IMG/VR virus record: IMGVR_UViG_3300037071_003688
Direction: 5' to 3' (one strand)
Length of the DNA: 64,000 nucleotides
Origin: a virus
Shown here: one piece after another, positions 14,177-32,595 of the stretch
Position numbering within the stretch: position 1 is the first letter of the stretch
How the letters are laid out: each line of letters begins with the position of its first letter
Position numbers and translations under genes: made by a program
Notes under the pieces: generated by a model
Database searches by the model: none
What the model was told of the DNA's origin: nothing
Seen by the model: only the letters and a program-made list of their open reading frames with translations

Positions 14177-14608
14177 GTGATCAAGCCGTTCACGCTCCTC
14201 GTCGCCGGTCTCGCCGGGCAGCGGGCGGCGCAGGCGATCTCGGCTGACAAGGTGACCCAACCGGTCCGCGATCGGGTCCTGTTGTGGTCGATGGACGACA
14301 AGCAGACATCGACGCAGTACGAGCGCCGAGCGAAGATCGCGCAGTTCATCCACTGCCCGCACTGCACCGGGTTCTGGTTGTCGGCGGTGACGCTCGCTAT
14401 GTACTCGGTCGTCCGGCGGTACCCGCGCAATCGCACCGCGCGTGGGATGTCGCTCGTGGTCGAGTGGTGGGCGGTGGCGTCGATCCAAACGATGCTGACG
14501 GCGGCGTGGGCGATGTTCTCCGACGTCGCGCATCATGCCGAGGTCGAGACGAAGCTCGCCGAAGCCGAACTCCTCAAGCAACGCCAGGCTCATATCCCAC
14601 CGTCGTAA
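14177..14608 (+). CDS. DUF1360-like membrane protein
   Basis: D..T.P.R...I..FIHCPHCTGFW plus hydrophobic helices; lies immediately before the portal. Confidence 0.7.
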   Translation: MIKPFTLLVAGLAGQRAAQAISADKVTQPVRDRVLLWSMDDKQTSTQYERRAKIAQFIHCPHCTGFWLSAVTLAMYSVVRRYPRNRTARGMSLVVEWWAVASIQTMLTAAWAMFSDVAHHAEVETKLAEAELLKQRQAHIPPS

Positions 14609-14661
14609 CCACGTCCGTGTAATCCCCGGGGGCTACCATGCTGCGACATGGCCGTGGGAGG

Positions 14662-16752
14662 ATGAACGTGGCTGCTCGACAGAAGGCCGACACCCGCAAG
14701 CTGCGACTGTTCGCCCGGGAAACGAAGCGCCACGGCGACTTCGCGATGGTGATGCCCCGTGCCACGGCCGGGTTGAAGCAGATCAAGGAAGGCTTCGAGC
14801 CACGCAACCTGCGTGACGGCTGGGCACGCGACGCCTACGTATTCGCCGACGAGATCGGCGAGGTCGGGTTCGTGATGAACCTGCAAGCCAACACCGGCGC
14901 CCAATGCGCGCTGCAACCCCAGAAGTACGACGTCGAGACTCGCCAGTGGTTGGAGACCGACGACGAGCGGGTGCTGCGAGTCCACGCCGCGTTCGTCGGC
15001 CCGCAGGGCGGCTCGGCCGAGTTGATGCGCCGCGGCTTCCTGCATCTCGGCATCGCCGGGGAAACCTTGCTGCTCGGCTCACCGGTCGATGAGGTCGACC
15101 TGAGCTACGGGCTGCACTGGGAGTTCCTGTCGTCGGAGGAGTTGGTGCTGCAACGCGGCGGCAAGGCCGTCCGCAAGTTCGACGGGAACAGCGGCGAAGC
15201 GTTGGGCGACGAGTATTACCTGGCCCGCATCTTCCGGTCGCACCCGATGTTCTCGGCGCTCGCCGACTCCCCGATGCGCCGCGTCCTGGCGATCTGCCAG
15301 GAGATCATCAACCTGACGCAGATGGTGTCGGGCATCGTCCGCTCACGGCTCGCCGCCGGGATCCTGTACGTCCCCGAGGAGATCACCTTCGCGACGGACG
15401 CCGACCCCGACGACCCGGACTCGGATCTCGATGAGGGCGACCTGCGCGACATGGTCGAGGTGTTCCTCAAGCAGTTGGCCGAACACCTCCGCGCCCCAGT
15501 CGAGGATCGCGCTTCGGCGGCTGCGCTCGTCCCCTTGTTGATGCGCGGCCCGGCCGAACTGTTCGACAAGATCGGTCTGATCGAAGTCGCGCGCGGCCTC
15601 GATACGTACGCCCAGGATCTCCGCAAAGAGGCACTCGCCCGGCTCGCCGCCGGACTCGACATCGACCCGGCGTTGATCGAGGGCGCGGCGTCGCTGAACC
15701 ATTGGACGCTGTACCAGGTCGACGCCAACTTCGTCACGAAGCAGGTCCGCCCGACCGGCGACCTGCTGGCCCGGGCGTTGACCGAGGTCTACCTGCGCAC
15801 CATGCTCGAAACGTTCGAGGGGATGGAGCCGACCGAGGTCCGCCTGTACCGGTGGATCTTCGACCCGGCCGCGATCATGGCCCGCACCGACGAAGCCGCG
15901 TCGAGCCGGATCCTGTACGACATGAACGTCCTCTCGGAGGACGCCCTGCTGCGCGCCAACGGCTTCGCCGACGCCGACGCCGTCGAGGACGACGAGTTGA
16001 ACAAGCGGCTCGCGATGCAGATGTTGCTGCGCGACCCGGCCAACATGGGGCCGGTCGTGTCCGATGTCCTCGGCCTCCAAGGCTGGGATTGGTCGAAGCT
16101 GCCATCCGCCGCCGGGGGCAGCCCGTTCGGGACACCGGGGGCGCCGGGCGCCCCGCCCGGTCCGGGATCGTTGGGAGCGCCTGCGCCACGCAAGGGGCTG
16201 CCACCATTGAACGCGACACCCCCGGCGAACGGTCAGCCGCCGAACCCGAACCAGCAGTTCCCGGACAAGACGACCGGGATGCAGGAACCACCGAACCCGG
16301 GCTTCTCGCTGCTCGTGGACCGCCTCGCGGTCGCCGCCGACGCCGCCGTCGAACGAGCATTGGAGAAGGCCGCAGCGCGGTTCGTCACGAAGGCCCGCCG
16401 CGTCGAGGGGTTGCGTCAACGCGTCGAGCACGTGCAAGGCACCGCGGTGCTGACCGCGGTGTCACCATCGGATCTGCTGTCGGTCGACTGCCCACCGGCG
16501 ATGCTGCTCGCCAAGGCGTGGGACTCGTTCGGCGACAACGCCCGCCGGTGGGTCAAGACCTACGCCATGAACCTCGGCGCCGATCAACTCTCCGCCGATG
16601 ACCTGGCCGCGCTCGCCTCCTCGAAGCTGTGCGAGTCGTTGCAGGAGTTGATGACGCTCAACATGCACGAGCGGCTCCCGGTCACGGGCAACGGCACCAA
16701 GGTCAACTCGGCTCTGATCTCCAACGCATTGCGTGCCGCCGGGGTCTGGTGA
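14662..16752 (+). CDS. portal protein
   Basis: about 700 aa, at the start of the head/MuF block; HP.....ADSP.R, SRLAAGILYVP.E, RLA.GLD and NHW motifs typical of actinophage portals; Pro/Gly linker then a C-terminal domain; start uncertain (14638/14662/14668). Confidence 0.8.
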   Translation: MNVAARQKADTRKLRLFARETKRHGDFAMVMPRATAGLKQIKEGFEPRNLRDGWARDAYVFADEIGEVGFVMNLQANTGAQCALQPQKYDVETRQWLETDDERVLRVHAAFVGPQGGSAELMRRGFLHLGIAGETLLLGSPVDEVDLSYGLHWEFLSSEELVLQRGGKAVRKFDGNSGEALGDEYYLARIFRSHPMFSALADSPMRRVLAICQEIINLTQMVSGIVRSRLAAGILYVPEEITFATDADPDDPDSDLDEGDLRDMVEVFLKQLAEHLRAPVEDRASAAALVPLLMRGPAELFDKIGLIEVARGLDTYAQDLRKEALARLAAGLDIDPALIEGAASLNHWTLYQVDANFVTKQVRPTGDLLARALTEVYLRTMLETFEGMEPTEVRLYRWIFDPAAIMARTDEAASSRILYDMNVLSEDALLRANGFADADAVEDDELNKRLAMQMLLRDPANMGPVVSDVLGLQGWDWSKLPSAAGGSPFGTPGAPGAPPGPGSLGAPAPRKGLPPLNATPPANGQPPNPNQQFPDKTTGMQEPPNPGFSLLVDRLAVAADAAVERALEKAAARFVTKARRVEGLRQRVEHVQGTAVLTAVSPSDLLSVDCPPAMLLAKAWDSFGDNARRWVKTYAMNLGADQLSADDLAALASSKLCESLQELMTLNMHERLPVTGNGTKVNSALISNALRAAGVW

Positions 16753-16758
16753 CCGATC

Positions 16759-19700
16759 GTGGCCACCGCCACGTTCGCCAATCCGTGGCATGACGAAATA
16801 GGTCGCTTCGCGCCCAAGGGAACCGGCACGAAGTTCGGCGCGACGCAGGACGAGATGCGGTCTCTGTTCGAGCCGGTGCGTCCGCTCGTGGACGTCCTCG
16901 AAGGCGCCGGTGCGAAGACCTACCTCGTGGGCGGCTCGGTCCGTGACCGGCTGCTCGGCATCGACGCCAAGGACATTGACATCGAAGTCCACGGGCTGAC
17001 CCCCGACGAGACCATCGCACTGTTGAAGGAACGGGGCGCCCGCGTCGATGAGGTCGGCAAGGCGTTCGGCGTGTTGAAGGTGACATTCGACGGCGAGACC
17101 CACGACTTCTCGTTCCCCCGCACCGAGGTCAAGACCGGCGAAGGCCACACCGGCTTCGATGTCACCGTCGACCCGAACCTCGGCATCGAGCAGGCGCTCG
17201 CCCGCCGCGACTTCACCATGAACGCGCTCGCCGTCGACTCCGACGGCAACATGGTCGACCCGTTCGGCGGGGTCGCTGACCTCAAGGCCGGTGTGCTGCG
17301 CCACGTCGGCCCGGCGTTCTCAGAGGATCCGCTCCGCATCCTGCGCGGCGTCCAGTTCGCCGCCCGCCTCGGCCTCAAGTTCGACCCGGAGACCGCCAAG
17401 CTCGCCCACGACCTGCTGCCCGAGTTGGAGAACATCTCGACGGAACGCGTGTGGGGCGAGTTCGAGAAGCTCGGCGGTAAGGGCGTCTCGATGGAGGCCG
17501 GTGTCCAGGCACTCAAGGACGTCGGTCTCGACACCCGCTACGGCAACGTCCACTTCGACGGCGAACCGAACCTGACCGGTCTCACCGGCGACCATCGCGC
17601 CGCCGTCGCGCTCACCGCGATCGGCGTCGACCCCCGCCAGATCGGAGCGCCGAACACCGTCTCCCGCACCATGCGCGACGTCAGCCAGGCGCTCGCGTTC
17701 ACCGGCGACCAGGCCGCATCCCGGACCGCGGCCCGCGAGTTGAAGTACGGCACGTTCGAGGACGCCGCCCGGATCGCAGGCCCAAACGACAACGTCGACC
17801 CACGTGTCCTCACCGGCCCACTCCCCGGACTCGTGACCGGCAACGACGTGATGGCCCGCGGTGTGCGCGGCTCAGCGATCGGCGAGGTCCTGCGCGCCGT
17901 GCAACAGGCCCAGGACAACGAGACCATCGTGACCCGCGAGGACGCGCTCGCCTGGCTCGACAAGCACGCCACCGCCGCTATCCGCCGCTCCGCCGCGTTC
18001 GTGAATCCGTGGCACGACGAGGTCGGACGGTTCGCCCCGAAGGGAACGGGACGCCGGTTCGAGCCGCGCGGCGGCGCCGACGCCCAAGCACAGGCGCTCG
18101 CAGAAGCGATGGCGACACGAGCCGAGTTGAACGGCGGGTTCACATTCGACCCGCGCGGCAACCTGTTCATCAAACCCGATCCGTCGCTGCCCCGCGAGGA
18201 ACATCGCGGCGCTGTCGCCGTGCCCGGCCATTCGGCGATCATCACGATGGAAGCCTTCCAGGACCCGACACGTGGCAAACAGTTCATCCGCGACTACCTC
18301 GACCAGCACGCCGAAACCATCGCCTCGCAACCGGACATCTTCATCGGCGGCTGGCACGACCGAGCGCACGGCGAGGTCGTGCTCGACCTGTCGCAGGTGC
18401 GCCCCCTCGATGAGGCGATCAAACTCGGGATCGAACGCGGCGAACAAGCGATCTTCGATCTCGACAGCGAGGAAGACGTCCCAACTCACGGGACAGGCGG
18501 ACGCGAGAACGTCAAGATAGTTGACGCATCGGGTCAGGGTTTGGTACGATTCAGTCATGGCAGATACCGCGGACCACCGCCAGCAGGCGCCGGACGTAAC
18601 GGTACGTCCGGGCGACCTGGAAGGCTGGGCGGACAAGTCCGAGGAGGAGAAGCAGGCGATCGTGGACGCCATGTACGAGGGTCTGAGTTCGCCAACCCCT
18701 GGCACGACGAGATAGGCCAGTTCGCGCCGAAAGGAACCGGCTCGACCGGGAAGGGCCGCTCCTCGAAGGCGGAGGAGGCCGCAGCGGCGAAGCTCGCCCG
18801 GGCGAAGGCCCGCAAGGTCCCGAAGCCGACCGAGGACGACGTGATCCAAGGCCAGGTCGACGCCCTCCTCGCGCGTGAGGGTTTGGTGCGCGCCGGTGGC
18901 GATCGGCGTGGCAACAACACGGCCCGGAAGAAGCGCGCCAAGGCGCTCGCCGCCGAGTTCGGCGACGGCACGACCTGCGCCTGCCCGGACTGCGGGCAGC
19001 GCATCGCGGCCGACGCGGCAACCGCCGAGAAGCTCGGCATCGACGCGCTCACGCAGGACAAGATCCTGGTGGGCACGTTGGGTGGCTCCTACAAGATGGA
19101 GAACCTGATCCCGACCTGCCCGCCATGCAACCAGTCGCGCGGCGACCGGGAGGGCATCGGTGTCGTCGGCGACGTGCGCCAGACGTGGGGATCAGCGGAA
19201 CGGTTCACGCGGACGGTGGTGCGTCAGCACGGCGACGCCATCGCTCAACGCTTCCAGGAGCGCCGGTCGGCGATCATGAAGCGCAAGGGGATCACGTGGG
19301 AGGAGCACATCGCCGAGAACCCGGACGCGCTCCCGCAGGACTTCGATCGGCTACGCCGCCCGGTCGGCGGGAACTTCGCCGTCGACGGCTGGACCCCCGG
19401 GGAGATCGTCACCGACTGGCTCGATCGTGTCGCCGTCAACGGCCACGCCGTCGACCATGAACTTCGTGTAGACGATCCCGTTCGAGTCGACTTCCCAGGT
19501 GAGCAACTCACCCTCGACCCCTGGGTCACCGACGATCGGGTTGTCGAGGTCATCGGGGGTGTCCCACCCGAACCGCTTGGCTCGCACGATCGTGCCGTCC
19601 TCAACCACAGACCGCAGCGTAGCGAGTTCGGCAACCCGTGGCATGACGAGATCGGTCAGTTCGCGCCGAAGGGCACGGGCACCAACTTCGCCAACATCGC

Positions 19701-22008
19701 CCGTCGCGCGGACGAAGCGGAAGCGGCCGGATCGCAGATCTCAGAACTCGACCTTGAGCAGGCCGCACTGCTCGATGACCGGCTGCGCGAGTTCGGGAAG
19801 GCGATGGGCAGCGACTTCCAGAACGACGACGGCGTCAGGCTGACCCATCACGCACTCGACCAGCGGCATGGGCGTGGGACGATGAACGGACTCGCCGCCA
19901 CCAACCCGGATGGCGTGGTGCTGGGCGCGATCGCCTACAACAAGAACCCCGGCGACTACCACATCGAGTTCCTCGGCTCGACCGGTCTCGTCAAGGGCGT
20001 CGGTTCGCAGTTGGTGATCCCCGTGATGGAACGGGCCGCAGCCGATGGGGCAAAGGTGACACTCAAGGTCGCCGGGACAAAGAGCGCCGCCTCGTTCTGG
20101 GAGTCGCTCGGCTTCGAGCGGGACTGGGAGAGCGCCACCGGCGCCACCATGCAGCCCGCCGACGTGCAGGCATGGGTGGCGAATCTCAACCGCGAACGCG
20201 AGGGTGTCTTGGTCGGCGCAGGCGCAGCACCAGAAGGATGGGATCCCGACGACGACCGCTGGGCTGCCCACGCGATCGAACTCGGGCTGATGTCCATTGT
20301 CGCCTCCGCGGCGCAGTTCATGAACCCGTGGCACGACGAGGTGGGTCGGTTCGCGCCGAAGGGGACCGGGCGCAAGTTCGGTAAGCACGTCTCGTGGCAT
20401 GTCGGCTCAAACGGCTACGAGGTGATGCACAACGGGAAATGGGTCCGGACGCCGGAAGCCATCAAGCACTACGGCGCGCTCGAAGTAGCGCAGCACATGT
20501 CGCCGCTCGAAGCCCGTCAACTCCGTGAGGAGTTGGAAGGCCAGACGATGATCGACCTTCTCAATGACACGGACGTTCAGTACAAGGCAACGGCATCGCT
20601 GGCGGTCCTGACTCACGACCCGAACTTGCACGGCAAGGAAGGTTTCGAGCATCTTCAACGTCAAGTCACCTTCGCCAAAGAGGCCGACCTCGGGCTGGTG
20701 ATGCAGTTGTACGCCGCAGAGCAGTTCGCCTCATGGGAACACTCCGGGGTCGACATCGCCCTGTTGAAGGAAGCCACGCAGGCGCACATGCGCGGTGAGA
20801 TTGACGCCGCCTCACTGTCACGGATGATCACCGAGCAGTACGGGATCACGGTCGAATCGGGCGCCGTTGGCTGGTTCAACCGGGCCTGGCAGATCTCCGC
20901 CGTCTCCCACGAATCAACTGCGATGCAGATCCAGATCGCCGAGCAACGCGGTCTAAGCGCAGCCGATGCGGCGATGCGCGACTACGTCGGCGACTCGACG
21001 CTGGACAAAGCCAACGATCTGACGTGGTCGATGGGAGCGACGATCAACGCCGTGACGTCGGCTCACATCCGCAACACTGAGGAGAAGCTGACCCAGGCCC
21101 CGGAACTGGCGTTGCCGACGATCCACCGAGGCTTGAAGGGTGAACAGTTCACCAGCATCCAGGCCGGTGACACGGTCCAGTCGAACCCCTTGTCGTCGTG
21201 GTCGTTCGACCCGAACCAGGCCGAGCACTTCGCCACCAACTTCATCGACACACAAGGGATCGTGATCACCACCGAGTTCAACCCGGCCAACGTGCTCACC
21301 ATCAGCGACATCAGCGGCATGGGATCACTGGACGAGCGAGAAGTGATCATGATCGGCGAACCGGTCAAGGTCACCCGCGCTCGTCTTCCAACGAAGCCCA
21401 GCGGTTGGGCAGTGATCCCGGAGAACGTGTACCTGATTGACACCCCGGAGAACGTCGACTGGATCACCCGCGAACCCGACGAAGCTCTGACGGCATCGGC
21501 GGCCAAGTTCGCGAATCCGTGGCATGACGAGATCGGACGTTTCGCGCCGAAGGGTCAGGGCAGCACGTCCGGCGGGCTGGACAACGAGGAGGCTGACGCC
21601 GAGTTCGAGGAGAAGTACGGCAACGAACGCCGATCCGGCGACGGCGACTGCTTCGAGGTCGGTTTGCACTTCATCCACTCCATCCCTCGCGGCGAGGAGG
21701 ACCGCTACAAGCTGTGTCACGGCGTGCCCGAGGGCCAAGGCCCGATCGAAGGCGTCCGCTTCGATCACTGCTGGATCGAACGAACCGACCCGCTCCCCGA
21801 GACCATGACCCCCGAGCAGCGGGCGATGTTCGAGCAGTACGAGATGAACATCACCGTGATCGACAAGTCGAACGGCAACGATGTCGAGATGCCCCGACTG
21901 CTGTACTACCAGTTGGGCAGCATCAATCCTCGCGACGTCCGCCGCTACACACCAGACGAAGCCCGCCGCGAGGCCGTCCGAACCGGGGTTTACGGGCCGT
22001 GGACATAG
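16759..22008 (+). CDS. polyprotein 1 (6 tagged modules): CCA-adding tRNA nucleotidyltransferase / unknown domain / HNH / GNAT / ADP-ribosyltransferase-like / papain-like Cys hydrolase
   Basis: YLVGGSVRD..KDIDIEV..RRDFTMNA..EDPLRILR; CPDCG..GGSY..EN....CPPCN; IEFLGS..KGVGS..FWESLGF; HRG..SSWS..EREV; GDCF..HCWIE; six NPWHDE.G.FAPKG tags. Confidence 0.9.
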   Translation: MATATFANPWHDEIGRFAPKGTGTKFGATQDEMRSLFEPVRPLVDVLEGAGAKTYLVGGSVRDRLLGIDAKDIDIEVHGLTPDETIALLKERGARVDEVGKAFGVLKVTFDGETHDFSFPRTEVKTGEGHTGFDVTVDPNLGIEQALARRDFTMNALAVDSDGNMVDPFGGVADLKAGVLRHVGPAFSEDPLRILRGVQFAARLGLKFDPETAKLAHDLLPELENISTERVWGEFEKLGGKGVSMEAGVQALKDVGLDTRYGNVHFDGEPNLTGLTGDHRAAVALTAIGVDPRQIGAPNTVSRTMRDVSQALAFTGDQAASRTAARELKYGTFEDAARIAGPNDNVDPRVLTGPLPGLVTGNDVMARGVRGSAIGEVLRAVQQAQDNETIVTREDALAWLDKHATAAIRRSAAFVNPWHDEVGRFAPKGTGRRFEPRGGADAQAQALAEAMATRAELNGGFTFDPRGNLFIKPDPSLPREEHRGAVAVPGHSAIITMEAFQDPTRGKQFIRDYLDQHAETIASQPDIFIGGWHDRAHGEVVLDLSQVRPLDEAIKLGIERGEQAIFDLDSEEDVPTHGTGGRENVKIVDASGQGLVRFSHGRYRGPPPAGAGRNGTSGRPGRLGGQVRGGEAGDRGRHVRGSEFANPWHDEIGQFAPKGTGSTGKGRSSKAEEAAAAKLARAKARKVPKPTEDDVIQGQVDALLAREGLVRAGGDRRGNNTARKKRAKALAAEFGDGTTCACPDCGQRIAADAATAEKLGIDALTQDKILVGTLGGSYKMENLIPTCPPCNQSRGDREGIGVVGDVRQTWGSAERFTRTVVRQHGDAIAQRFQERRSAIMKRKGITWEEHIAENPDALPQDFDRLRRPVGGNFAVDGWTPGEIVTDWLDRVAVNGHAVDHELRVDDPVRVDFPGEQLTLDPWVTDDRVVEVIGGVPPEPLGSHDRAVLNHRPQRSEFGNPWHDEIGQFAPKGTGTNFANIARRADEAEAAGSQISELDLEQAALLDDRLREFGKAMGSDFQNDDGVRLTHHALDQRHGRGTMNGLAATNPDGVVLGAIAYNKNPGDYHIEFLGSTGLVKGVGSQLVIPVMERAAADGAKVTLKVAGTKSAASFWESLGFERDWESATGATMQPADVQAWVANLNREREGVLVGAGAAPEGWDPDDDRWAAHAIELGLMSIVASAAQFMNPWHDEVGRFAPKGTGRKFGKHVSWHVGSNGYEVMHNGKWVRTPEAIKHYGALEVAQHMSPLEARQLREELEGQTMIDLLNDTDVQYKATASLAVLTHDPNLHGKEGFEHLQRQVTFAKEADLGLVMQLYAAEQFASWEHSGVDIALLKEATQAHMRGEIDAASLSRMITEQYGITVESGAVGWFNRAWQISAVSHESTAMQIQIAEQRGLSAADAAMRDYVGDSTLDKANDLTWSMGATINAVTSAHIRNTEEKLTQAPELALPTIHRGLKGEQFTSIQAGDTVQSNPLSSWSFDPNQAEHFATNFIDTQGIVITTEFNPANVLTISDISGMGSLDEREVIMIGEPVKVTRARLPTKPSGWAVIPENVYLIDTPENVDWITREPDEALTASAAKFANPWHDEIGRFAPKGQGSTSGGLDNEEADAEFEEKYGNERRSGDGDCFEVGLHFIHSIPRGEEDRYKLCHGVPEGQGPIEGVRFDHCWIERTDPLPETMTPEQRAMFEQYEMNITVIDKSNGNDVEMPRLLYYQLGSINPRDVRRYTPDEARREAVRTGVYGPWT
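18511..18550 (+). promoter_or_regulatory. internal promoter within polyprotein 1
   Basis: GTCAA-N5-TTGACG-N18-TACGAT with TGn extension; ATG at 18557. Confidence 0.7.
18557..18715 (+). CDS. overprinted small acidic protein (52 aa) in another frame of polyprotein 1; candidate immunity protein
   Basis: own promoter and leaderless ATG; normal GC3 codons, while the polyprotein frame here is G/R-rich and shadow-like. Confidence 0.6.
   Translation: MADTADHRQQAPDVTVRPGDLEGWADKSEEEKQAIVDAMYEGLSSPTPGTTR
19351..19644 (-). CDS. antisense overprinted acidic protein inside polyprotein 1; candidate immunity protein
   Basis: DGTIVRA...VEGELL...YTKFMVDG..VD.DTIEPV resembles the C-terminal half of ORF 57217-57552; plus-frame codons here are atypically A/T-ending; start uncertain. 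Confidence 0.55.
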   Translation of the reverse strand: MPRVAELATLRSVVEDGTIVRAKRFGWDTPDDLDNPIVGDPGVEGELLTWEVDSNGIVYTKFMVDGVAVDGDTIEPVGDDLPGGPAVDGEVPADRAA

Positions 22009-25000
22009 CGCCGACCATCCCCGTCCCGACCACAGAGGCAGAGATCGGAACCCTGCGCGTCCCGATCGACCCCGACGATCCGCTGCTCGCCGATCAGACG
22101 CTCGTGGCGTCGGCCGGGATCATCGCCGACTTCGAGGACTCGTACCTCGATGAACTGACCGGCGCCGTCGAACAGTCGTTGCGATCACTCCGCCAGATGG
22201 TCGTGCAACGCCTCCGCGCGCACGCCACCATCGCGAAACCGATCGCTGCGTCGGCCGCACGCAACGGCCAGTTCATGAACCCGTGGCACGACGACCGAGG
22301 CCGCTTCGCTCCGAAGGGGACCGGCCGCGCGAACGCGATCCGGACGTGGGGCACCGACCGCAAGGTCACCATCGAGAAGTGGGTGTCGGGTCACAAGCAT
22401 TCGGTGACGACCTCGAACGGCGACGTGATCGTCCTCCACGACCACAACAACGTCCTGTCGCAAAGCCCCGGCGGCGAGCAAGCCATCAGCGACTTGTTGA
22501 ACGGCGCCGCCGACGCACATGACCTGTGCCCGGGGATGAACGTCCCGCAGATCATGGTCAAGAACGTCGACGGGCTGATCGCCGACATGGCCGCGCTGCA
22601 TGACATGCAACGCGTCGAATGGGAACGGCTCCGCAACGTCGGCGCGTTCGTCACCGGCAACAGCCCGGACGGCAATAAGGCGCCGGGCTGGATCTTCGTC
22701 AACCCGGACCGGCTGCACAGTGAGCAGCTTTACGCCCAGGATGACATGCCCGCCATGATCGCTCTCGGCCCGGCCCGCTACAAGGTGATGCACGAGTACG
22801 GGCATCTGCGCATGACCCAAGGTCTCGACTCGGTGTTCGCGATCAACGATCAGTTCAAGTACACGAGCGACTCGCGTCGCAGCGGCGGGATGTCGAAGTA
22901 CGGCAACACGAAACCGATCGAGGCGCACGCCGAGGCGTTCGCCGAATGGGCGGCACGCGGCGGCAACATCGAGCGCGGCCCGAAGGGCCAGTTCCTCACC
23001 GACATCGACTATGTCGTCACGTCGTACGCCAACGCGTTCGGGTGGGGCAAGGACCTCGAACAGGTCGGCCGTCCGCTCGCCGTCGCTGCCGCCGGTGGGC
23101 CGCAGGACCCGATCCCGTTGATCATCGGTGACAGCCCGGAAGGCCCGATCTACATCTACGCGGACGGAACCATCGAGGAGACGCTCGTCGCCTCCGCCGG
23201 GCAGTTCATGAACCCGTGGCACGACGAGATCGGCCGGTTCGCCCCGAAGGGGACCGGCCGCTACATCAAGGTGCTCGGCGAGTTCCCCGGCGAACCGTCG
23301 CAGGAGATGTTGGCGAACGCCGACTTCCGCTACCAGGCCGACATGGGCAAGCGGTTTACGTGGCTGTGGCAACGCACCTATCAGACGCATCGAGCGGTGA
23401 AGCAGATCGCCCGCAATCTGCTCGCCGGGAACGAGCCGTTCGACGGGGTCGATCTCAACGACCCGCTCTTGGAGCGGTACTCGAAGCCATCCCGCTTCGC
23501 GGGCGGCCCCAAGCACGAGTACAACGAAACCGATCTCCACAACGATCTGCAAGCCGCAGCCGAATGGATCCTGGTCCAGCCCGTCGAGAAGCAGCCCGTG
23601 CTCTACCGCGGGGCGATGACCGACGAATCGAAGATGGGTGTCTTCAAGGTCGGTGCTGACATCCCGCTCGACCTGGTCTCGGCGACACCGGACCGGTTCG
23701 AGGCCGCGCCGTACTCGTCACCATTCGGTTCTCCCACGTCCTACCTCGACCCGGTCCGGCTGTCGTTCCAGTTCACCGGCGCCGAAGGCACGAGCCTGCG
23801 TCCGCATGTGACCGGCAACATGAGCGACTCGAAGGAAGTCGTGATGCGGGGACGCGGCCGGATCACACGGATGGAGAAGAACGAGCACGGGATCTGGCAG
23901 ATCTGGGTCGACGCCTCGAACGCCCAAGAGGAGGCGTTGGCCGCGTCGATCGGCGACGACGCCGTGATCCTGGCGATCCTCGACCAACCGTTCCACCACT
24001 ACGACGAAACCGGCGCGCTCGTCGCCGCCGCCGGGCAGTTCATGAATCCGTGGCACGACGAGATCGGTCGCTTCGCGCCGAAAGGCACCGGCGTCAAGCG
24101 GCTCGGCCCGAAGACCCTCAACGACGACCCGACCGCCTACGACAAGGTCGATCTCGATGACATGGAGGCAACCAAGGCCAGCCTCGAAGCGTACGCCGAC
24201 CATGTGACCGCGGAACTCGCCGACATGTTCCCCGGCGAGGAACTCATCTTCGGCCTTGACGAGTATCACAAGATCGCCAAGAGCACCCGGCCCCCCGAAT
24301 ACCATGCTCAGTTTCGGCTGACGAACGCTGACGGCGAAGACGTGGCGAAGATGGCGCGGGTCATCGAGATGGAGGATGACAGCGCATTCGCTGCCGGGAT
24401 GTGGGTTGACGACTCGATGCAGGGCAAGGGCATCGGCACCGTGCTGCAAGAGGGCTTCGAGCACTGGGCGGCATCGCAGGATCTCAGTGCGATCAACGTG
24501 TTCGCCACGATGGTCGGCCGGTGGGCGTGGATGCGCGCCGGTTATGACTGGGCGAACACCGAAGCGTTCGGCGACATCGCCAACCTGCTCGGCGACGCCG
24601 ACCCAGTCGGTCGCTCATTCAGGCGGGCGTGGCAGGACGTCACCATCCCTGACGATCTACCAACGCCGTACGAGTTGTCGAACATTCTCGGTCGCAAAGC
24701 GATCCTCCATCCGCAGTTCCCGAACTGGTCGGGCACCAAGCCGCTGCGCACCCGGGCACTGGCACTCGCCGCCACCGCCATAGCGCCCCGTGAGGAGCGT
24801 CTCGCCAAGGTGCGCGAGGCGTACGCCCAGTGGTGGCCGCAGTACCCGGCCGCGGCCGAGGGCTACATCGTTGACCCGGAGGCCGAGGCCGCATGGGAAG
24901 CGTTGATGCAGGGCGGGCTGGTCGCGGCGGGGCCGTTCGATCTGGACGACTTCAACGTGATGACCGCCGAGGAGTGGGCGCTGGCGTTCGATGTCGAGGC

Positions 25001-26792
25001 AGCGGACATCGTCGGCGATGTCGTCGTGGACGCCGCCACCGGTCAGGCGCTCCGCCCCGGCCTGAACGTGTCGGACAAGATCATCACCGATCTCGTGGAC
25101 CGCCACATCGGACGGCTCCAAGATCTCGGCCCGCTCGTGCAAGCCTCACTGCGCGACGCGCTGCACCTCGCCGTCTCCAACCAGTTGACGCTCGATGAGG
25201 TCATCCGCGAGATCCAAGCCACCGGACCATTGGGAGCAACCGCGGCACGCGCGATCGCACGCACCGAACTCACCGCCGCCACGAACGGCGGGATGTTGAC
25301 CGGATGGAAACGCGACGGGTTCCCGTTCAAGCAATGGATCAGTCTTCACGACGAACGTGTCCGCCATGCGCACCTCGAAGCCGACAAGCAGATCAAACCG
25401 ACCGAGCAGGAGTTCGAGGTCGGCGGCTGGCCCGCCCAATACCCCGGCGACCCACGCCTCCCGGTGCATCTGCGCATCAACTGCCGCTGCTACATGGACC
25501 GCATCGGTGAAGATGGCACGACCATCGGCACACGGCTGGTCGACTCGACCCGCGCCACGCTGTACCGCCTCGCCCAAGAGTTGAACATTCCGGGCCGCTC
25601 GAAGATGCTGAAAGAGGACCTGTTCCAGGCGATCGACCGGTACCGCAACGGGTTCGGGTTCCAACCATTGGAGGAGATGTCCCGGGCGCAACTGCTGATC
25701 CGTGCCCGCGCGGCGGGGATCGTCGGCCGCTCGAAGATGTCGCGCCCCGAGTTGATGATCCGCTTGCGCGACCTGTCGACCGGTCGGACCCGTGACCGCT
25801 GGCTGATCGACGCCGGGCACGGCACCCGCGAACAGATCGCCGCCGTCCAAACCCAACTCGCCGCCGACATCGCCGCGCTGCACCAAGGTCCGATCGTCGG
25901 CGCCGGACCGCCACCATCAGTCGAGAAGGTCGACACGATGCGCCGCAAGGTGTTCCGCCGCTACGGCGGCGCCGACACCGGCACCGCGATGTGCGTCGGC
26001 TGCGCGGCCCGGATGCACTGGTCGAACACGACACGCTGGGAACAGGTGACGCTGATCCGGATCGACCCGAAGATCTCGTGGTCCGCCCGCAACGCGTTCC
26101 CGGCGTGCCTCGCCTGCGCCCCGAAGCTCGCCAAGCTCGGCACGGAGAAGCTCTCGGCGACGTTCACCATCGACAACTCATGGACGGCGATCGCCGCCAC
26201 GTTCACCGGCTGGGGACCGATCCTGGCCCAGTTCGCGAACCCGTGGCACGACGAGCAAGGCAAGTTCGCGCCGAAAGGCACCGGCAAGAAATACGACTCG
26301 GCGGCGATCAAGGCCAAGGTGAAAGCGTCGATGGAGGCCGGGGTCAACGTCGACCGCGTCGGCGACCCGCAGGCGACGCTCTCCAAGCTCGACGCCTGGG
26401 CCAAGCAGATGGGATCCGACTTCGACGCCGACGAAGGGGTCGGCATGATCCGCGAAGCGTTGAATGACGTCGGGGCTGGCTCGAAGTCGTTGATCGCCAA
26501 CCACAAGAACGGGATCGCCGGGATCATCTCGTACGACTACGACCCGGACAGCAAGATGTACATGATCCATCACCTCGGCTCGACCGGGATCGCCCCCGGG
26601 ACCGGCACTCGGCTGGCGACTCAGGTCATGATCCAAGCCGCGTCGAACGGTGCTGGGGTCGAGTTCGAGGCAGCCCAGAACGACACCGCTCCCGAGTTCT
26701 GGTCGTCGCTCGGCTTCGATGTTTCCGACCCCAAGCACGTCGTGATGAGTCCATCCGATGTCGGCGCCTGGATGCGAGACTTCACGGGATGA
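21999..26792 (+). CDS. polyprotein 2: MuF minor head protein carrying zincin metallopeptidase, ADP-ribosyltransferase-like, two GNAT, two Rho-N-like and a degenerate HNH-like module
   Basis: HEYGH..SKYG...EAHAEAF; LYRG..VSAT..KEVV; QGKGIG..W...GY; ARAIARTE..KQW...D.RVR.AH..YPGDP..INCRC (MuF); IPGRSKM.K.DL-like repeat twice; GTG start overlaps the preceding stop; four tags. Confidence 0.9.
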   Translation: MDIAPTIPVPTTEAEIGTLRVPIDPDDPLLADQTLVASAGIIADFEDSYLDELTGAVEQSLRSLRQMVVQRLRAHATIAKPIAASAARNGQFMNPWHDDRGRFAPKGTGRANAIRTWGTDRKVTIEKWVSGHKHSVTTSNGDVIVLHDHNNVLSQSPGGEQAISDLLNGAADAHDLCPGMNVPQIMVKNVDGLIADMAALHDMQRVEWERLRNVGAFVTGNSPDGNKAPGWIFVNPDRLHSEQLYAQDDMPAMIALGPARYKVMHEYGHLRMTQGLDSVFAINDQFKYTSDSRRSGGMSKYGNTKPIEAHAEAFAEWAARGGNIERGPKGQFLTDIDYVVTSYANAFGWGKDLEQVGRPLAVAAAGGPQDPIPLIIGDSPEGPIYIYADGTIEETLVASAGQFMNPWHDEIGRFAPKGTGRYIKVLGEFPGEPSQEMLANADFRYQADMGKRFTWLWQRTYQTHRAVKQIARNLLAGNEPFDGVDLNDPLLERYSKPSRFAGGPKHEYNETDLHNDLQAAAEWILVQPVEKQPVLYRGAMTDESKMGVFKVGADIPLDLVSATPDRFEAAPYSSPFGSPTSYLDPVRLSFQFTGAEGTSLRPHVTGNMSDSKEVVMRGRGRITRMEKNEHGIWQIWVDASNAQEEALAASIGDDAVILAILDQPFHHYDETGALVAAAGQFMNPWHDEIGRFAPKGTGVKRLGPKTLNDDPTAYDKVDLDDMEATKASLEAYADHVTAELADMFPGEELIFGLDEYHKIAKSTRPPEYHAQFRLTNADGEDVAKMARVIEMEDDSAFAAGMWVDDSMQGKGIGTVLQEGFEHWAASQDLSAINVFATMVGRWAWMRAGYDWANTEAFGDIANLLGDADPVGRSFRRAWQDVTIPDDLPTPYELSNILGRKAILHPQFPNWSGTKPLRTRALALAATAIAPREERLAKVREAYAQWWPQYPAAAEGYIVDPEAEAAWEALMQGGLVAAGPFDLDDFNVMTAEEWALAFDVEAADIVGDVVVDAATGQALRPGLNVSDKIITDLVDRHIGRLQDLGPLVQASLRDALHLAVSNQLTLDEVIREIQATGPLGATAARAIARTELTAATNGGMLTGWKRDGFPFKQWISLHDERVRHAHLEADKQIKPTEQEFEVGGWPAQYPGDPRLPVHLRINCRCYMDRIGEDGTTIGTRLVDSTRATLYRLAQELNIPGRSKMLKEDLFQAIDRYRNGFGFQPLEEMSRAQLLIRARAAGIVGRSKMSRPELMIRLRDLSTGRTRDRWLIDAGHGTREQIAAVQTQLAADIAALHQGPIVGAGPPPSVEKVDTMRRKVFRRYGGADTGTAMCVGCAARMHWSNTTRWEQVTLIRIDPKISWSARNAFPACLACAPKLAKLGTEKLSATFTIDNSWTAIAATFTGWGPILAQFANPWHDEQGKFAPKGTGKKYDSAAIKAKVKASMEAGVNVDRVGDPQATLSKLDAWAKQMGSDFDADEGVGMIREALNDVGAGSKSLIANHKNGIAGIISYDYDPDSKMYMIHHLGSTGIAPGTGTRLATQVMIQAASNGAGVEFEAAQNDTAPEFWSSLGFDVSDPKHVVMSPSDVGAWMRDFTG

Positions 26793-29700
26793 GCTTCGAC
26801 CCGGACGACGACCGCTGGGCCGAACGCGCAGCCGAGGTGGCAGTGACCACCATGACCCTCGAACCAGGCGGCGAGTTCACCGTCAAGTTCCGGGCCACCG
26901 AGTTCAACAACCCGTGGCATGACGAGATCGGACGGTTCGCGCCGAAGGGTTACGGGCACATGGGCGGCAACAAGTACAGCCGTGAGGTCGCGGTCCCCCG
27001 CAGCGTCGAGGACGCCGCCGCTGTGTACGCGGCGATGACCCTGTACAACGCCGTCAACCGTGGAGACCCGATGCCCGCCATCCACGAAGCCCTCCACGCG
27101 CTGATCAAGACAGCCGAGGCCGCAGACCAGGACCTCATGGAACGCCTGATCAAACCGGCCGCGCGGGCAATCGGCGACAACGACATGGACACGGCGCACG
27201 AGTTGATCGTTGACGCCGACAGCGAGGTGTTCAAGCCGTTCACCGAGGAGTTCGAGGTCCCGCCACCGGAGAAGATCACGGTCACCGGCGGGCAACCCCC
27301 GGAGTCCGGCTTCGGCCCGACGATCTGGCAGACCGTCACCCCCGAAGGGCACACCATCACGTTCAACAGCCGCGGTCACACCGTGACCGACGAACAGGCG
27401 TACACGATCCTGTCGGCAGCGACGACCGCGGCGCGCGCCGGGAACATGGACCAAGACGTCACCATCCAAGTCCAAGCCTCGTTCAACCGGGACACGATGT
27501 CGCGCGAGCCACTGGTGATGGGGTTCGTCGTCGCCAACCCGGACATCGGCACCGACCCGCATCGAACCGTCAACATCACACCCGAGTTGATCAACGGTAA
27601 CTTCGACCCGGGCGGGAGCACCGAGCGCATCCCGTCGACGTTGACGGCATCAGCGGCGCTCGTGGAACCGTTGCGGATCACCGTGCTGCACGAGATGGGC
27701 CACGTCTCGTTGTTCGAGGAGGCGTTCCACCGGCAAGGCGATCTCACGCAGGGCAAGGAATGGTTCAACGAGCAGATGATTCAGACGGCGAACACGACGC
27801 CGATCACCGACAAGCCGTTCATGTCGCTGTACGCCCAGGAGAACACGACCGAGATGCACGCCGAAGCGTTCGCTGAGTGGACCAACACCGGCGGCAACAC
27901 GAACAACCCGTGGGTGCTACGCATGGCCGACCAGTACGGCTGGTCGACGGGCCGCGCCGCCGAAGACCTGCCATTGGCCGCGGCAGGGGCGCCACCGATC
28001 GAGCCGTGGGTGCCGATCTGGTACTTCCCGGAGGAGCCGGTCATCCTCATCGACAGCCGCGACGGCGCCAGCTACGTGTACGGCGACGCGGCGCTCGCCG
28101 CCACCGAACCCGTTGTCGCCTCCGCCGGGCAGTTCATGAATCCTTGGCATGACGAGATCGGACGGTTCGCCCCGAAGGGGACCGGCTCCAAGTTCGACGC
28201 AGTGAGCGCGATGCAGGACGTGCAGAACGGCAAGCCGGTGTCGGTCACCGGCGTCGAGGCCGTCGACCTCGCGTTGGAGATGGCCCGGCTTTACCATCCG
28301 ATCGACATGACCCTCGTCACGGTCGACGGGTCGCACATGTTCAGTGAGATGCGAGCGAACGGGCGGTCACGGGTCGAGATGCCGCAGATCCCCGGCAAGT
28401 TCCACCCCGCCTTCGAGGAGCACCTGCGCGAGTTGGGTGTGACCATGACTCCGGAGACGATCGACCCCCGCGAGTTGCACGGCACCCAATCCGAGTTGGA
28501 CGGTCAGGCAGTCGGCAACATGATCCAGTCCTACCGGGACGGCGGCTTCAACTTCACGTCGAAGCCGTTGGTCGTCTCCTCCGACAACCGGATCCTGGAC
28601 GGTCACCATCGTTGGGCCGCGGCGGCGATCGAGTCCGCGGCGTGCGGCGGCTGCATCGAGATGCCGATCATGCGTGTCGACCTGCCGATGAGCGAACTGC
28701 TCCACGTCGCCGACGACTTCGTGGACAGTCTCGGCATCGTCCGTCAGGGCCACGGCGAGCACGGAAAGCACAGCCCGCAGCCGCCGCCCCTGCACGAGAA
28801 GATCGCCGCGGCTGTCATCCCACCATCGCAGAATGAGCAGGTGGAGTTCGAGTACGCGACCGACACCGATGACGGGATCACCGACGAGCAACTCGCCGAC
28901 CTGCCACACGGCGACGGCTCCGCGTTCGAGGAGGGGGAGGGCGTGGTCGCTTCCCCCGCCTCGTTCGCCAACCCTTGGCACGACGAGATCGGACGCTTCG
29001 CGCCCAAGGGCACCGGCACGAAGATCGGCTTCGACGCCGACGCCGCCTCCAACCAGTTCGCCGACGATCTCGCCACACTCAACGCCAACGCCGACGCGAT
29101 GGCCGAGCCATACCGCATCCACTACGAACGCGGCGGCGAGAAACAGTCGACGTTCGCTCAGGCCCGCGACGAGTACCTCGCCTACGGCTCATCGGAGATG
29201 GACCGCCAACTCCGCACCAACGGCGACAGCACAGTCAAGGATCCGGCGCACCGGCGGGCGCTGATGAACGCCGTCGTGCTCGATGAAGCCATCGAACGGT
29301 CCGGTGTCGTGTTCGCCGAGGACACCGTCCTGCTGCGCGGCGTGCGCAACACGCAGGCCGGGAACCTGACGGTCGGCACCGAGTTCACCGATCCCGCGTT
29401 CGTGTCCGTGACAGCGTCACCCGGCGAAGCCGCGCAGGCGTCCGGGCAGCAACAACGCCCGGCCGGTTTCCCACCCTCGGCGAACCCGGGCACCATCGTC
29501 GCGTTGAAGGTCCCGAAGGGAACCAAGGCGATGCCGGGCGCCGAGAACGAGAAGGAATGGGTGCTGCCACGTGGCGGCACGTACACCGTGACGAACGTGA
29601 TCGAGGGCGACGGGGTCCGCATCGCCGAGGTCGAGGTGACATTCCCCGAGTCGCCGCCGGTGACGAAGGGGATCCCAACCATCAACGACTTGCTCGAACG

Positions 29701-30319
29701 GACCGCGGGGCAACAAGAACGCCGCGGCCTCGCCGCCTCCGCCGGTGGCCTCATCGTTCACGAGCGCCTCTCATGGGATCCCGCCGACATCGACGTGATG
29801 ACGAACCGCCGCCAGTTCCGGCTGATCTGGGATGCGGGTGTCCTCGCCGACGCCACCATCACGCGTGCCGCGTTCGGCAACCCGTGGCATGACGAGGTCG
29901 GGCGCTTCGCGCCGAAGGGCACCGGCAAGCAGGTCGCCGCCGAGGGCCGGGCACGTGAACTGTTGGCCGGGGAACGAATCGCGCTCGCCGATGTCGACGT
30001 GCCAATGGGAACCCCCGAACAGATCAAGTTGACGACCGACACCCGCGACGACGACGCCCTGTGGGAAACCGCCACACCGATCAAGGTCTCGGCGCAGGAC
30101 AAGTTCGTCGCATCCGAGGAATCCGTCAAGACACGACCGGTGCGCGACGTCGTGCTCGACGGCGAAGCATTCCGACCCGGCTACCCGCCCCGCCTGTACC
30201 AGTTGCCGGACGGCAGCTACCTCGTCGCTGACGGCCACCATCGAATCGTGATGCACAAGCTGCTCGGCACCCCGAGCTTCGACGCAATCGTGCTGCCCTA
30301 TCCGGAGGAGAAGCAATGA
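26789..30319 (+). CDS. polyprotein 3: zincin metallopeptidase / ParB-Srx-like / VIP2-like ADP-ribosyltransferase / ParB-Srx-like
   Basis: HEMGH..SLYA..E.HAEAF; TQ..SSD.RILDGHHRW; LLRG..DPAFVSVT..EKEWVLPRG; LVADGHHR; four tags. Confidence 0.9.
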   Translation: MSFDPDDDRWAERAAEVAVTTMTLEPGGEFTVKFRATEFNNPWHDEIGRFAPKGYGHMGGNKYSREVAVPRSVEDAAAVYAAMTLYNAVNRGDPMPAIHEALHALIKTAEAADQDLMERLIKPAARAIGDNDMDTAHELIVDADSEVFKPFTEEFEVPPPEKITVTGGQPPESGFGPTIWQTVTPEGHTITFNSRGHTVTDEQAYTILSAATTAARAGNMDQDVTIQVQASFNRDTMSREPLVMGFVVANPDIGTDPHRTVNITPELINGNFDPGGSTERIPSTLTASAALVEPLRITVLHEMGHVSLFEEAFHRQGDLTQGKEWFNEQMIQTANTTPITDKPFMSLYAQENTTEMHAEAFAEWTNTGGNTNNPWVLRMADQYGWSTGRAAEDLPLAAAGAPPIEPWVPIWYFPEEPVILIDSRDGASYVYGDAALAATEPVVASAGQFMNPWHDEIGRFAPKGTGSKFDAVSAMQDVQNGKPVSVTGVEAVDLALEMARLYHPIDMTLVTVDGSHMFSEMRANGRSRVEMPQIPGKFHPAFEEHLRELGVTMTPETIDPRELHGTQSELDGQAVGNMIQSYRDGGFNFTSKPLVVSSDNRILDGHHRWAAAAIESAACGGCIEMPIMRVDLPMSELLHVADDFVDSLGIVRQGHGEHGKHSPQPPPLHEKIAAAVIPPSQNEQVEFEYATDTDDGITDEQLADLPHGDGSAFEEGEGVVASPASFANPWHDEIGRFAPKGTGTKIGFDADAASNQFADDLATLNANADAMAEPYRIHYERGGEKQSTFAQARDEYLAYGSSEMDRQLRTNGDSTVKDPAHRRALMNAVVLDEAIERSGVVFAEDTVLLRGVRNTQAGNLTVGTEFTDPAFVSVTASPGEAAQASGQQQRPAGFPPSANPGTIVALKVPKGTKAMPGAENEKEWVLPRGGTYTVTNVIEGDGVRIAEVEVTFPESPPVTKGIPTINDLLERTAGQQERRGLAASAGGLIVHERLSWDPADIDVMTNRRQFRLIWDAGVLADATITRAAFGNPWHDEVGRFAPKGTGKQVAAEGRARELLAGERIALADVDVPMGTPEQIKLTTDTRDDDALWETATPIKVSAQDKFVASEESVKTRPVRDVVLDGEAFRPGYPPRLYQLPDGSYLVADGHHRIVMHKLLGTPSFDAIVLPYPEEKQ

Positions 30320-32595
30320 CCGCCACCTTCGCCAACCCGTGGCACGACGAAATCGGCCGCTTCGCGCCGAAAGGCACCGGCACCAAGGGCGACATTGACG
30401 ACAGCGGCGGGATGACCCGACCAGGATGGCTGGGACTGCACGCCCCCAAGAGCGCGAAGACGCTGACGCGGGTCGCACGGATCCTGGACTCCATGCCCGA
30501 GACCCGCGAAGTAGCCGACCTCGTGAAGGGCGCGGCCGAGGCCGAAGACCCGGACGAGTTCGATGCGTGGATGGAGGACGCCTTGAACGCCATCGCACGC
30601 GCTGGCGGCACGAGCGGCGAGATGCTCGACATCGAACGCCAGTTGGACGAGATCCGCCGCGCCGGGTTCACCATGCCGCCTGTCCTCACGTGGGGGATCA
30701 ACGAGTTCGCCAACCCGTGGCACGACGAGGAAGGCAAGTTCGCGCCGAAGGGCGCAGGCACGAAGTCGTCCGGCGTCGCCGCTCCCGAGGGGACCGATCA
30801 GCCGACCCAGGGCAACGAGGGCGACATCGTCTCGAAGCTCGAAGTGAAGCCGGGCGGTAACCGCTCGACCGGAGTCGACCATGAGGCGCTCGCTCAGGAG
30901 GTGATCAACGGCGGCGACATCGTCGTCAACCCGATCGACGCCGACGACGTGATCCGCAACTTCGCCGACGCACCCCAGGACGTCGTTGACTTGACCGGGG
31001 TCACGGTCGAGGGCGCCCCCAACATGTTCTCGAAGATGCGCGAGTCAGGGCGCGCCCGTACCGAGATGCCGCAGATCACCCCCGACGTGCAACCCGAGTG
31101 GTTCGACACGCTCCGCCAGGAAGGCATCAACTTCGTCGCAAACGAAGTCGACCCGGCGTCACTGTCGGCAACACAGTCGGAACTGAACGGCAAGAAAGTC
31201 GGCGGCATGATCAGGGCGATGGAGGGCGGCACGATGTCGCTCGAAGGCGACGCCCTGCTCGTCTCGTCGGACGGCCACATCCTCGACGGCCACCATCGTT
31301 GGGCGGCTGCGGCGGCGATGTCAGCGGACTGTGGCGGCTGCATCAAGATCCCGGTGATCGTGATCGACCTGCCAATCACGGAACTGGTCTCGTACGGCCT
31401 CAACTGGACTGACGCACGAGGGATCCCCCGCGCCGGGGTCGGAACGCCGAGTAAGAAGCAGGCGGCTGGAATGTCGCCGTGGATCTTTACTATGAAGGGC
31501 GTGACCTTCGCGGCCAAGAACTTCATGGAGGGCGGAACCCCCGTCCCCGAGGGCGAGTACCCGAAGTTCGCGACCGACGCCGAGGACGGCCTCACCGACG
31601 CCGACTTCGTTGGTCTGCCGCAGGGCGACGGTTCGTTGTCCGCCGCCAACGCCAACACGGCTGTCGCCGAGAAGCCAGCCGAAGGCGACGCTGTGACGGC
31701 GTCGGGCGCCCGCCGCCAGTTCGGCCTGGCCGAGTTCATGAACCCATGGCACGACGAGATCGGGCGCTTCGCGCCGAAGGGAACCGGCACGCAGTCCGGC
31801 GGATCCCACCCGCCGGTGACGAGCGGTGACGTCACCATCGAGTTCGATGACAAGGGCGAGATCGTCGTGTCCGACGAGGCGATGGCGCTCGCCAAGCCGG
31901 TCTACGAGGAGGCCCAACGCCGTGAACGGGCGATCTCCGACCGGCTGATCGAGATCGTCGGCGACCGCTCCCCGGAGCAGTACGAGGAACCACCACCGCC
32001 GCAGTTGTACGGCTTCGAGTTCCGCCGCAAGGAACAAGACAAGATCGCCGAGAAGATCGAACGGGAAGTCCTCGAAGCCCACGAGGAAGGCATCGTGATG
32101 ACCCGCGAGCAAGCCGCCGCCAAGATCAAGGACGCGGTGCGCTACACCGTTCACTACACGCAAGACGAGTTCGGCGAGAAAGCGCAAGCCGTGATCGACC
32201 AACTCGCGCAGGACAACCCGGGCGGCAAGGTCAAGAACACGTGGCCCCCCGGCTCGAACAACGTGTACAAGGGCGTCAACGTCAACGTCACCACCGACGA
32301 TGGCTACACGTACGAGATCCAGTTCCACACCCCCGAGTCGCAAGCCATCAAGGACGCCCAACACGACCTGTACAAGCAGGCCCGTGTGCTCCCCAAAGGC
32401 GACCCGCGTCGAGTCCAACTCGAAGCGCAGATGGACCAGTTGAGCAAGGGCGTCGAACCGCCGACCGGCGCGATCGAGGTTTCGACGCCAGAGCGGTGGC
32501 GCGAACGGCTGGCAGCGAGCGCCGCCCGCCTCCGCCACTTCCTCACCCAACGACACATCCTCTCCCAGACCCGACATTGGAGCGTCCATGAGTAA
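30316..32595 (+). CDS. polyprotein 4: short helical module / ParB-Srx-like / RelA-SpoT-like (small alarmone synthetase fold) nucleotidyltransferase
   Basis: ILDGHHRW; R.K......KI..IKDAVRYT..KNTW..YKGVN..EIQFHTPES..H.LY; three tags. Confidence 0.88.
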   Translation: MTATFANPWHDEIGRFAPKGTGTKGDIDDSGGMTRPGWLGLHAPKSAKTLTRVARILDSMPETREVADLVKGAAEAEDPDEFDAWMEDALNAIARAGGTSGEMLDIERQLDEIRRAGFTMPPVLTWGINEFANPWHDEEGKFAPKGAGTKSSGVAAPEGTDQPTQGNEGDIVSKLEVKPGGNRSTGVDHEALAQEVINGGDIVVNPIDADDVIRNFADAPQDVVDLTGVTVEGAPNMFSKMRESGRARTEMPQITPDVQPEWFDTLRQEGINFVANEVDPASLSATQSELNGKKVGGMIRAMEGGTMSLEGDALLVSSDGHILDGHHRWAAAAAMSADCGGCIKIPVIVIDLPITELVSYGLNWTDARGIPRAGVGTPSKKQAAGMSPWIFTMKGVTFAAKNFMEGGTPVPEGEYPKFATDAEDGLTDADFVGLPQGDGSLSAANANTAVAEKPAEGDAVTASGARRQFGLAEFMNPWHDEIGRFAPKGTGTQSGGSHPPVTSGDVTIEFDDKGEIVVSDEAMALAKPVYEEAQRRERAISDRLIEIVGDRSPEQYEEPPPPQLYGFEFRRKEQDKIAEKIEREVLEAHEEGIVMTREQAAAKIKDAVRYTVHYTQDEFGEKAQAVIDQLAQDNPGGKVKNTWPPGSNNVYKGVNVNVTTDDGYTYEIQFHTPESQAIKDAQHDLYKQARVLPKGDPRRVQLEAQMDQLSKGVEPPTGAIEVSTPERWRERLAASAARLRHFLTQRHILSQTRHWSVHE

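Follow-up and report, generated by a model that had tools for sequence, protein, structure and literature searches.

In a 64,000-nucleotide stretch of DNA of an uncultured phage (the window; bases 5329-69328 of the 147,492-bp IMG/VR virus record IMGVR_UViG_3300037071_003688, rated 97% complete), a predicted CCA-adding enzyme belongs, as one interchangeable module, to a set of four polyvalent proteins that are punctuated by tags and encoded directly after the portal gene. The module (16828-17985, + strand) is very probably a CCA-adding-type class II tRNA nucleotidyltransferase (NTase), as judged by its sequence and its modelled fold. On the whole we lean towards an intact enzyme that is carried as polyvalent head cargo and would act on tRNA ends in the next cell; its packaging in the virion and its delivery, to which the genomic context points, are moderately probable. 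A first-pass annotation of the DNA had described it as the first cargo module of the virion, a tRNA maturation or repair activity available before phage gene expression. The call of the enzyme and the need of the phage tRNAs for it are upheld here, the first position has no meaning, and delivery by the virion is suggested by the context.

The nucleotidyltransferase module

The module comprises 386 amino acids (residues 24-409 of polyprotein A) and is encoded within the open reading frame (ORF) 16759-22008 (+), directly behind the first copy of the tag (FANPWHDEIGRFAPKGTG, 16774-16827, +). The class II nucleotidyltransferase motifs listed in the first-pass annotation were all found in frame: GGSVRD (16930-16947) and DIDIEV (16972-16989) of motif A, RRDFTMN of motif B (17203-17223) and EDPLR of motif D (17323-17337). 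Alignment added motif C, DPFGG (17257-17271), and motif E, ERVWGEFEK (17443-17469), and a tail motif of the CCA-enzyme type is also present (17833-17892); all of them are on the + strand. Motifs A-E are invariant or nearly so across an alignment of 60 homologs, with G35, G36, R39, D40, D51 and E53 invariant in the 60, and the module retains every motif. Furthermore, its flexible loop of 10 residues, VKTGEGHTGF (17128-17157, +), aligns with R65-F74 of E. coli Cca, with G70 kept and Y71 replaced by His. This loop is needed if the terminal A is to be added, and it is missing by deletion from natural CC-adding enzymes (PMC2532741).

According to Pfam, the module shows a PolyA_pol domain (5e-22) and a PolyA_pol_RNAbd domain, and its PHROG match is tRNA nucleotidyltransferase (phrog_2244, 3e-65). 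Among the NCBIfam models, those of Cca score 150-173 bits against 118 bits for pcnB; the module misses every curated full-length cut-off because the alignment covers only the head and neck. Of the solved structures, the best sequence match is the CCA-adding enzyme of Bacillus stearothermophilus (1MIV, 4e-27). Tertiary structure was predicted with AlphaFold (AF2), which gave a pLDDT of 96.3 and a pTM of 0.91, and the head, neck, body and tail domains are all present in the predicted structure. Full-length comparison in Foldseek gave TM scores of 0.64-0.70 with CCA-adding enzymes (1MIV, 6QY6, 4X4W and 3H37), 0.48-0.59 with A-adding enzymes, 0.49-0.51 with E. coli poly(A) polymerase and 0.42-0.45 with CC-adding enzymes.

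No HD phosphohydrolase was found in the module by Pfam, and the HD segment of E. coli Cca and of P0222, a metagenomic homolog, is gapped in the alignment. Given that no HD domain is present, the predicted enzyme would work on 3'-OH ends only. A search of the 147-kb genome found no second PolyA_pol domain, so that the NTase module is the sole one. Comparison with the module of P0124, which is 87% identical, gave a dN/dS of 0.23 overall, 0.20 for the head and neck and 0.28 for the body and tail, by which measure the module is under purifying selection. The enzyme named by the first-pass annotation is thus matched by a full-length class II NTase of the CCA-adding type, with catalytic motifs kept and under purifying selection.

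Tag-punctuated polyproteins behind the portal gene

The portal protein gene (14638-16752, +; phrog_776, 5.8e-84) ends 7 nt before polyprotein A, a chain of 1749 amino acids with six tags whose modules, assigned by translation, Pfam, PHROG and tag positions, include the NTase and an HNH nuclease. Three further giant ORFs follow consecutively on the same strand. Polyprotein B (22005-26792; translation and Pfam) has four tags, with zincin, GNAT and MuF plus Rho_N modules; its MuF domain lies at about 25149-25493 (+; Pfam Phage_Mu_F, 3.5e-05, and phrog_2468, head morphogenesis, 3e-25). Polyprotein C (26789-30319) has four tags, with zincin and ParB-like modules according to PHROG, translation and tag positions, and polyprotein D (30316-32595) has three tags by their positions. 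MuF is a hallmark of head-packaged, ejected proteins. The set shows two features of polyvalent proteins: several unrelated catalytic domains in one chain (polyprotein A has NTase and HNH, B has GNAT, zincin and MuF, and C has zincin and ParB-like modules), and linkage to virion genes, with the portal directly upstream, MuF in the next gene and HExxH modules in polyproteins B and C. As listed, polyprotein B begins about 300 nt before polyprotein A ends (21714-22008); the shared part reads as an out-of-frame stretch rich in arginine, and polyprotein B probably starts near 22005.

The tag has the consensus F-x-NPWHDE-x-G(R/K/Q)FAPKGTG and occurs in 17 copies across the four ORFs, with 13 columns invariant over all copies, and a new module opens at every copy. 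The second copy (17998-18051, +), for example, opens the module that follows the NTase (residues 433-605), for which an atlas search returned only unnamed viral clusters, all below 0.9. An 18th copy (NPWHDEIGRFAPKGTG) heads a stand-alone ORF of 207 amino acids (46489-47112, -) that lies between tRNA genes, distant from the polyproteins, and has zero Pfam or PHROG matches. Outside the window, a search of IMG/VR with the exact degenerate DNA pattern of the tag found one further contig (L008/L009), where the portions examined show tags and no NTase; tblastn of a 24-residue tag peptide against phage records found none, a query too short to be informative.

Module order and fusions in relatives

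Two related proteins carry the same tag and the NTase module: P0124 (878 amino acids, module identity of 87%) and P0125 (1255 amino acids, 77%). Each is encoded by the first gene after a portal-sized gene, and the upstream neighbor of P0125, in the relative L013, is 87% identical to the portal protein of the window. The order of portal-sized gene, NTase polyprotein and MuF polyprotein is found in the relatives L010 and L013. In P0124 one module precedes the NTase and in P0125 two, and its flanking modules differ; the modules are therefore judged, from these sequences, to be shuffled between close relatives, and the first position to which the earlier annotation had drawn attention is incidental. 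The post-portal polyproteins of L010 (1995-4631) and L013 (4321-8088) differ from 16759-22008 of the window by other modules in another order, with the exchange at the tags.

Fusions are not limited to these relatives. In metagenomes, CCA-type enzymes are fused to MuF (P0222), to ART-PolyVal (P0129, P0145 and P0176) and to PBECR2 (P0221), and the gene of P0129 is placed among further giant ART-PolyVal genes. ADP-ribosyltransferase modules are part of P0125 and P0187, and P0187 also has a SprT-like module. On a quick maximum-likelihood tree (IQ-TREE), at least five independent fusion events are required. In a relative, L011 (2307-5375 and 10001-12946), the polyprotein with the CCA enzyme adjoins the terminase gene. 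Genes for a T4-type RNA ligase 1 (Rnl1), a metallophosphatase and an AAA_33 kinase are found near it, which resembles a full tRNA-repair set. Marine metagenomes also contain CCA-type enzymes fused to topoisomerase IB and others with LAGLIDADG (intein-type) inserts (P0157, P0178, P0195, P0196 and P0205; P0230, P0231 and P0234).

One clade of stand-alone genes, which includes a CCA enzyme, shows a second private tag at the N-terminus, VFACYxAxCRPPxxGGTGGS, which is unrelated to the first and common to neighboring genes; the same enzyme is hence found behind two unrelated private tags. In P0127 (981 amino acids) the second tag separates modules. It was located at positions 830, 1642, 2848 and 10334 of L003, at 3859 of L004 and at residues ~420 and ~640 of P0127, and, like the tag of the window, it is often preceded by T/V-A-S-A/S.

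With regard to the origin of the phage, no match was obtained when 14600-22100 was compared with 50,697 phage records by megablast, and the G+C content of the 147,492-bp record is 65%. A 385-kb contig of Desertimonas flava (Actinomycetota) has an annotated major capsid protein, P0257, with 53% identity to that of the phage, and this homolog points to an actinobacterial host. A related prophage may lie on this contig, which offers a clue to the host range. A recent capture of the NTase from an actinobacterial host was considered and rejected: the actinobacterial Cca model scores 113 bits, below the proteobacterial-type and phage models.

Head protease, capsid protein and a shared motif

A prohead (head maturation) protease is encoded at 58708-60708 (+; phrog_18402 and phrog_859), and a major capsid protein with a scaffold-like N-terminal region at 61092-62930 (+; phrog_777, 2.8e-65). 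The Pfam model Phage_capsid (PF05065) missed the capsid gene, which was recovered by PHROGs. Both proteins share a cleavage-like motif with the polyproteins, [LIVM][VAT]AS[AG]. The four polyproteins hold 10 copies of it, mostly immediately before tags, whereas shuffled sequences would be expected to give 0.3; the protease holds four copies and the capsid protein one. The copy of the capsid protein, ALVASG, is nearly invariant among 43 homologs; it falls in the disordered linker that joins the scaffold-like N-terminal region to the capsid body. This distribution suggests that the prohead protease, active inside procapsids, processes the polyproteins at a shared motif that resembles a cut site.

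Directly upstream of the protease gene lies a 2H (LigT-like) phosphoesterase gene (57563-58699, +; Pfam 2_5_RNA_ligase2, 9e-13). As a conjecture, this protein may be an end-healing partner that prepares other end types for the HD-less enzyme. RtcB was not found in the phage genome; the search for Rnl1 gave no match in it, nor in any control genome, and so says nothing on its absence. Just past the last polyprotein, on the opposite strand, a DNA methyltransferase gene (33533-34642, -; phrog_67, 3.8e-63) interrupts the head gene block.

tRNA genes and the proposed role of the enzyme

An array of 33 tRNA genes lies at 39612-55378 (+): 32 were found by ARAGORN, every one inside the window, and one more, at 40193-40264, by Rfam. 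With CCA called from the position directly after the discriminator, nine genes encode CCA in register and 24 of the 33 do not, which reproduces exactly the count of the first-pass annotation. tRNA-Arg(CCG) (39978-40054) and tRNA-Ser(GCU) (54989-55076) are followed by CCCA and count as encoding CCA only if an 8-bp acceptor stem is accepted; ARAGORN assigns them such a stem because CCCA, and not CCA, comes after.

In the course of events that we propose, the polyproteins would be produced late, together with the head proteins, and would be loaded into the procapsid, with the NPWHDE tag probably serving as an address. Cleavage by the prohead protease at LVASAG-type sites would follow, and finally the proteins would be ejected into the next cell together with the DNA. 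In that cell the 24 CCA-less tRNAs of the phage would receive CCA from the enzyme, which would also restore trimmed 3'-OH tails of host and phage tRNAs, ahead of any phage gene expression. Its lack of an HD domain would limit it to cut tails with a 3'-OH and an intact discriminator, so that of the maturation and repair activity in the first-pass annotation the CCA-adding-type enzyme is confirmed by prediction and the range of repair is narrower, 3'-OH ends only.

That defences attack tRNA 3' ends, as the same annotation stated, is documented in the literature: Cas12a3 cuts CCA tails, and its authors note that viruses would need as yet unknown means of resistance (PMC12851939), toxSAS enzymes pyrophosphorylate the CCA end (PMC11559606) and MenT toxins extend the tRNA 3' end (PMC7450476). 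Cas12a3 can take off the discriminator as well, a loss that this enzyme would be unable to make good. If the enzyme is delivered in the particle, the tRNA 3' end would be contested from the first moments of infection, and the module would be a candidate answer to the question of how phages resist defences that cut or block CCA tails (Cas12a3, toxSAS and MenT/AbiE-type toxins). The swapping of modules between close relatives and the at least five independent fusions point to a general, testable rule by which cargo is specified by a tag, and such a rule could serve for loading proteins into capsids. A bolder extension, which we hold only tentatively and think rather doubtful, is that several unrelated phage lineages pre-load a CCA enzyme in the capsid as a counter-defence against Cas12a3-type tail nucleases, with NPWHDE as a modular capsid-loading address by which any enzyme could be made cargo through tagging.

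Alternative readings

Several observations weigh against a packaged, tail-restoring CCA enzyme. There are zero LVASAG-type sites between the NTase and the next three modules, the first one being at residue 1180; release of a free enzyme is therefore not indicated, and, if there is no cut in the tag itself, the NTase may stay within a large fragment. A distance of 26 kb separates the protease and capsid genes from the block of portal and polyprotein genes. Among homologs of similar length, the nearest share 45-60% identity over 93-97% of the module; they are stand-alone genes (380-430 amino acids) on phage-like metagenome contigs, where they adjoin PTH2, NT5C, RNA-repair or other non-structural genes, and 498 of 498 matching isolate phage records carry stand-alone genes, with no NTase fusion among isolate phages in the collection of 50,697 records. 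As for the activity, an HD-less module is predicted to be unable to heal cyclic-phosphate or pyrophosphorylated ends, and the head motifs also belong to poly(A) polymerases, whose sequences are difficult to separate from those of CCA-adding enzymes (PMC2532741).

These homologs also fit an enzyme that is real and not packaged, with the polyprotein as an expression format or the tag as an intracellular address, which would mature the CCA-less phage tRNAs late in the producing cell, like the stand-alone phage CCA enzymes. The 18th tag, which heads a small ORF in the tRNA region far from the head genes, and the enzyme of L011, which stands beside the terminase and T4-like RNA-repair genes with no portal gene as neighbor, agree with this explanation as well. 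It leaves aside that the position right after the portal is conserved in three relatives, that a MuF domain belongs to the same gene set, that the protease-type motif is common to the capsid protein and the protease, and that fusions of the enzyme to MuF and polyvalent domains have arisen more than once; moreover, late expression alone is a poor fit for tRNA maturation. For these reasons virion cargo is favoured, and an enzyme that stays in the producing cell seems unlikely, although it is the alternative we take most seriously. Two others concern the activity itself, since A-adding or poly(A) activity is in part compatible with the sequence. An enzyme of partial activity would add only A or only CC, and in the A-adding form it would repair only a lost terminal A and could not alone mature the CCA-less phage tRNAs. 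A-adding enzymes have all the motifs and the loop (PMC2532741), the A-adding structures of Aquifex match significantly, and the residue at the position of Y71 in the E. coli loop is His in the module. The presence of the flexible loop is contrary to a CC-adding enzyme, full CCA-adding enzymes score higher by both sequence and fold, and the phage has no second nucleotidyltransferase for the other half, though the host enzyme could supply it; we consider partial activity quite improbable. More improbable still appears an RNA-tailing effector, similar to poly(A) polymerase or of another kind, whose injection would block tRNAs or mark host RNAs for decay. Its head motifs, including EDxxR, would be those shared with PcnB, whose models and structures match significantly, and the neighboring modules (ART, GNAT and HNH) are effector-like; against it stand the higher scores of the Cca models, the lower TM scores to E. 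coli poly(A) polymerase than to CCA-adding enzymes, the tail motif at 17833-17892, and the alignment with E. coli Cca and PcnB, in which the module shows neither an insertion of the PcnB type at the loop nor a basic region at the C-terminus.

Comparison with known systems

The module resembles the class II CCA-adding enzymes (1MIV, 6QY6 of Planococcus and E. coli Cca) in motifs A-E, in the flexible loop and, over its full length, in the four-domain 'seahorse' fold. Its identity to E. coli Cca is 37% in the alignment and 43% by BLASTP over the head and neck. Unlike those enzymes, it has no HD domain and a shortened body, and it is placed inside a multi-enzyme chain of 1749 amino acids behind a private tag. 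The stand-alone tRNA nucleotidyltransferases of phages (phrog_2244; for instance in Mycobacterium phage Phabba and in jumbo phages of Brevundimonas) belong to the same family, are homologous over the full module and are likewise found in tRNA-rich phages, but they are separate genes in non-structural regions, whereas here the enzyme is a module of a portal-adjacent polyprotein. In jumbo phages, genes for such stand-alone enzymes have been discussed in connection with RNA repair (PMC7824862).

Relative to T4 Pnkp and Rnl1, the target here would be the 3' tail and not the anticodon loop; T4 synthesizes its repair enzymes once infection has begun, and the enzyme described here would instead arrive ready-made. 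Pnkp and Rnl1 are the phage tRNA repair that answers PrrC, the anticodon nuclease of the host.

The four polyproteins are like polyvalent and MuF-fused proteins in that unrelated enzyme domains are joined in one chain near virion genes, together with MuF, zincin, ART, GNAT and ParB-like domains (PMC5512222). For proteins of this class, injection along with the DNA has been predicted (Iyer et al. 2017, PMC5512222). A CCA-adding enzyme is absent from that study, which lists Pol-beta nucleotidyltransferases for conjugative elements only and describes no invariant 18-residue tag for each module. Our literature search found no link between CCA-adding enzymes and MuF, polyvalent or ejected capsid proteins. 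Phage CCA-adding enzymes have so far been known as stand-alone genes, and polyvalent cargo has been known without a CCA enzyme.

Compared with the internal proteins and Alt of phage T4 and with the Dar proteins of phage P1, the tag described here is repeated inside polyproteins and is unrelated in sequence, and its loading and cleavage are putative. The T4 proteins have a short N-terminal capsid-targeting peptide, are cleaved by the head protease gp21 and are ejected with the DNA. In phage P1, DarA and Hdf are located at the inside of the capsid wall, from where they exit together with the DNA (PMC12810830). As a proposed address, the NPWHDE tag would follow a logic comparable to that of the cargo-loading peptides of encapsulins.

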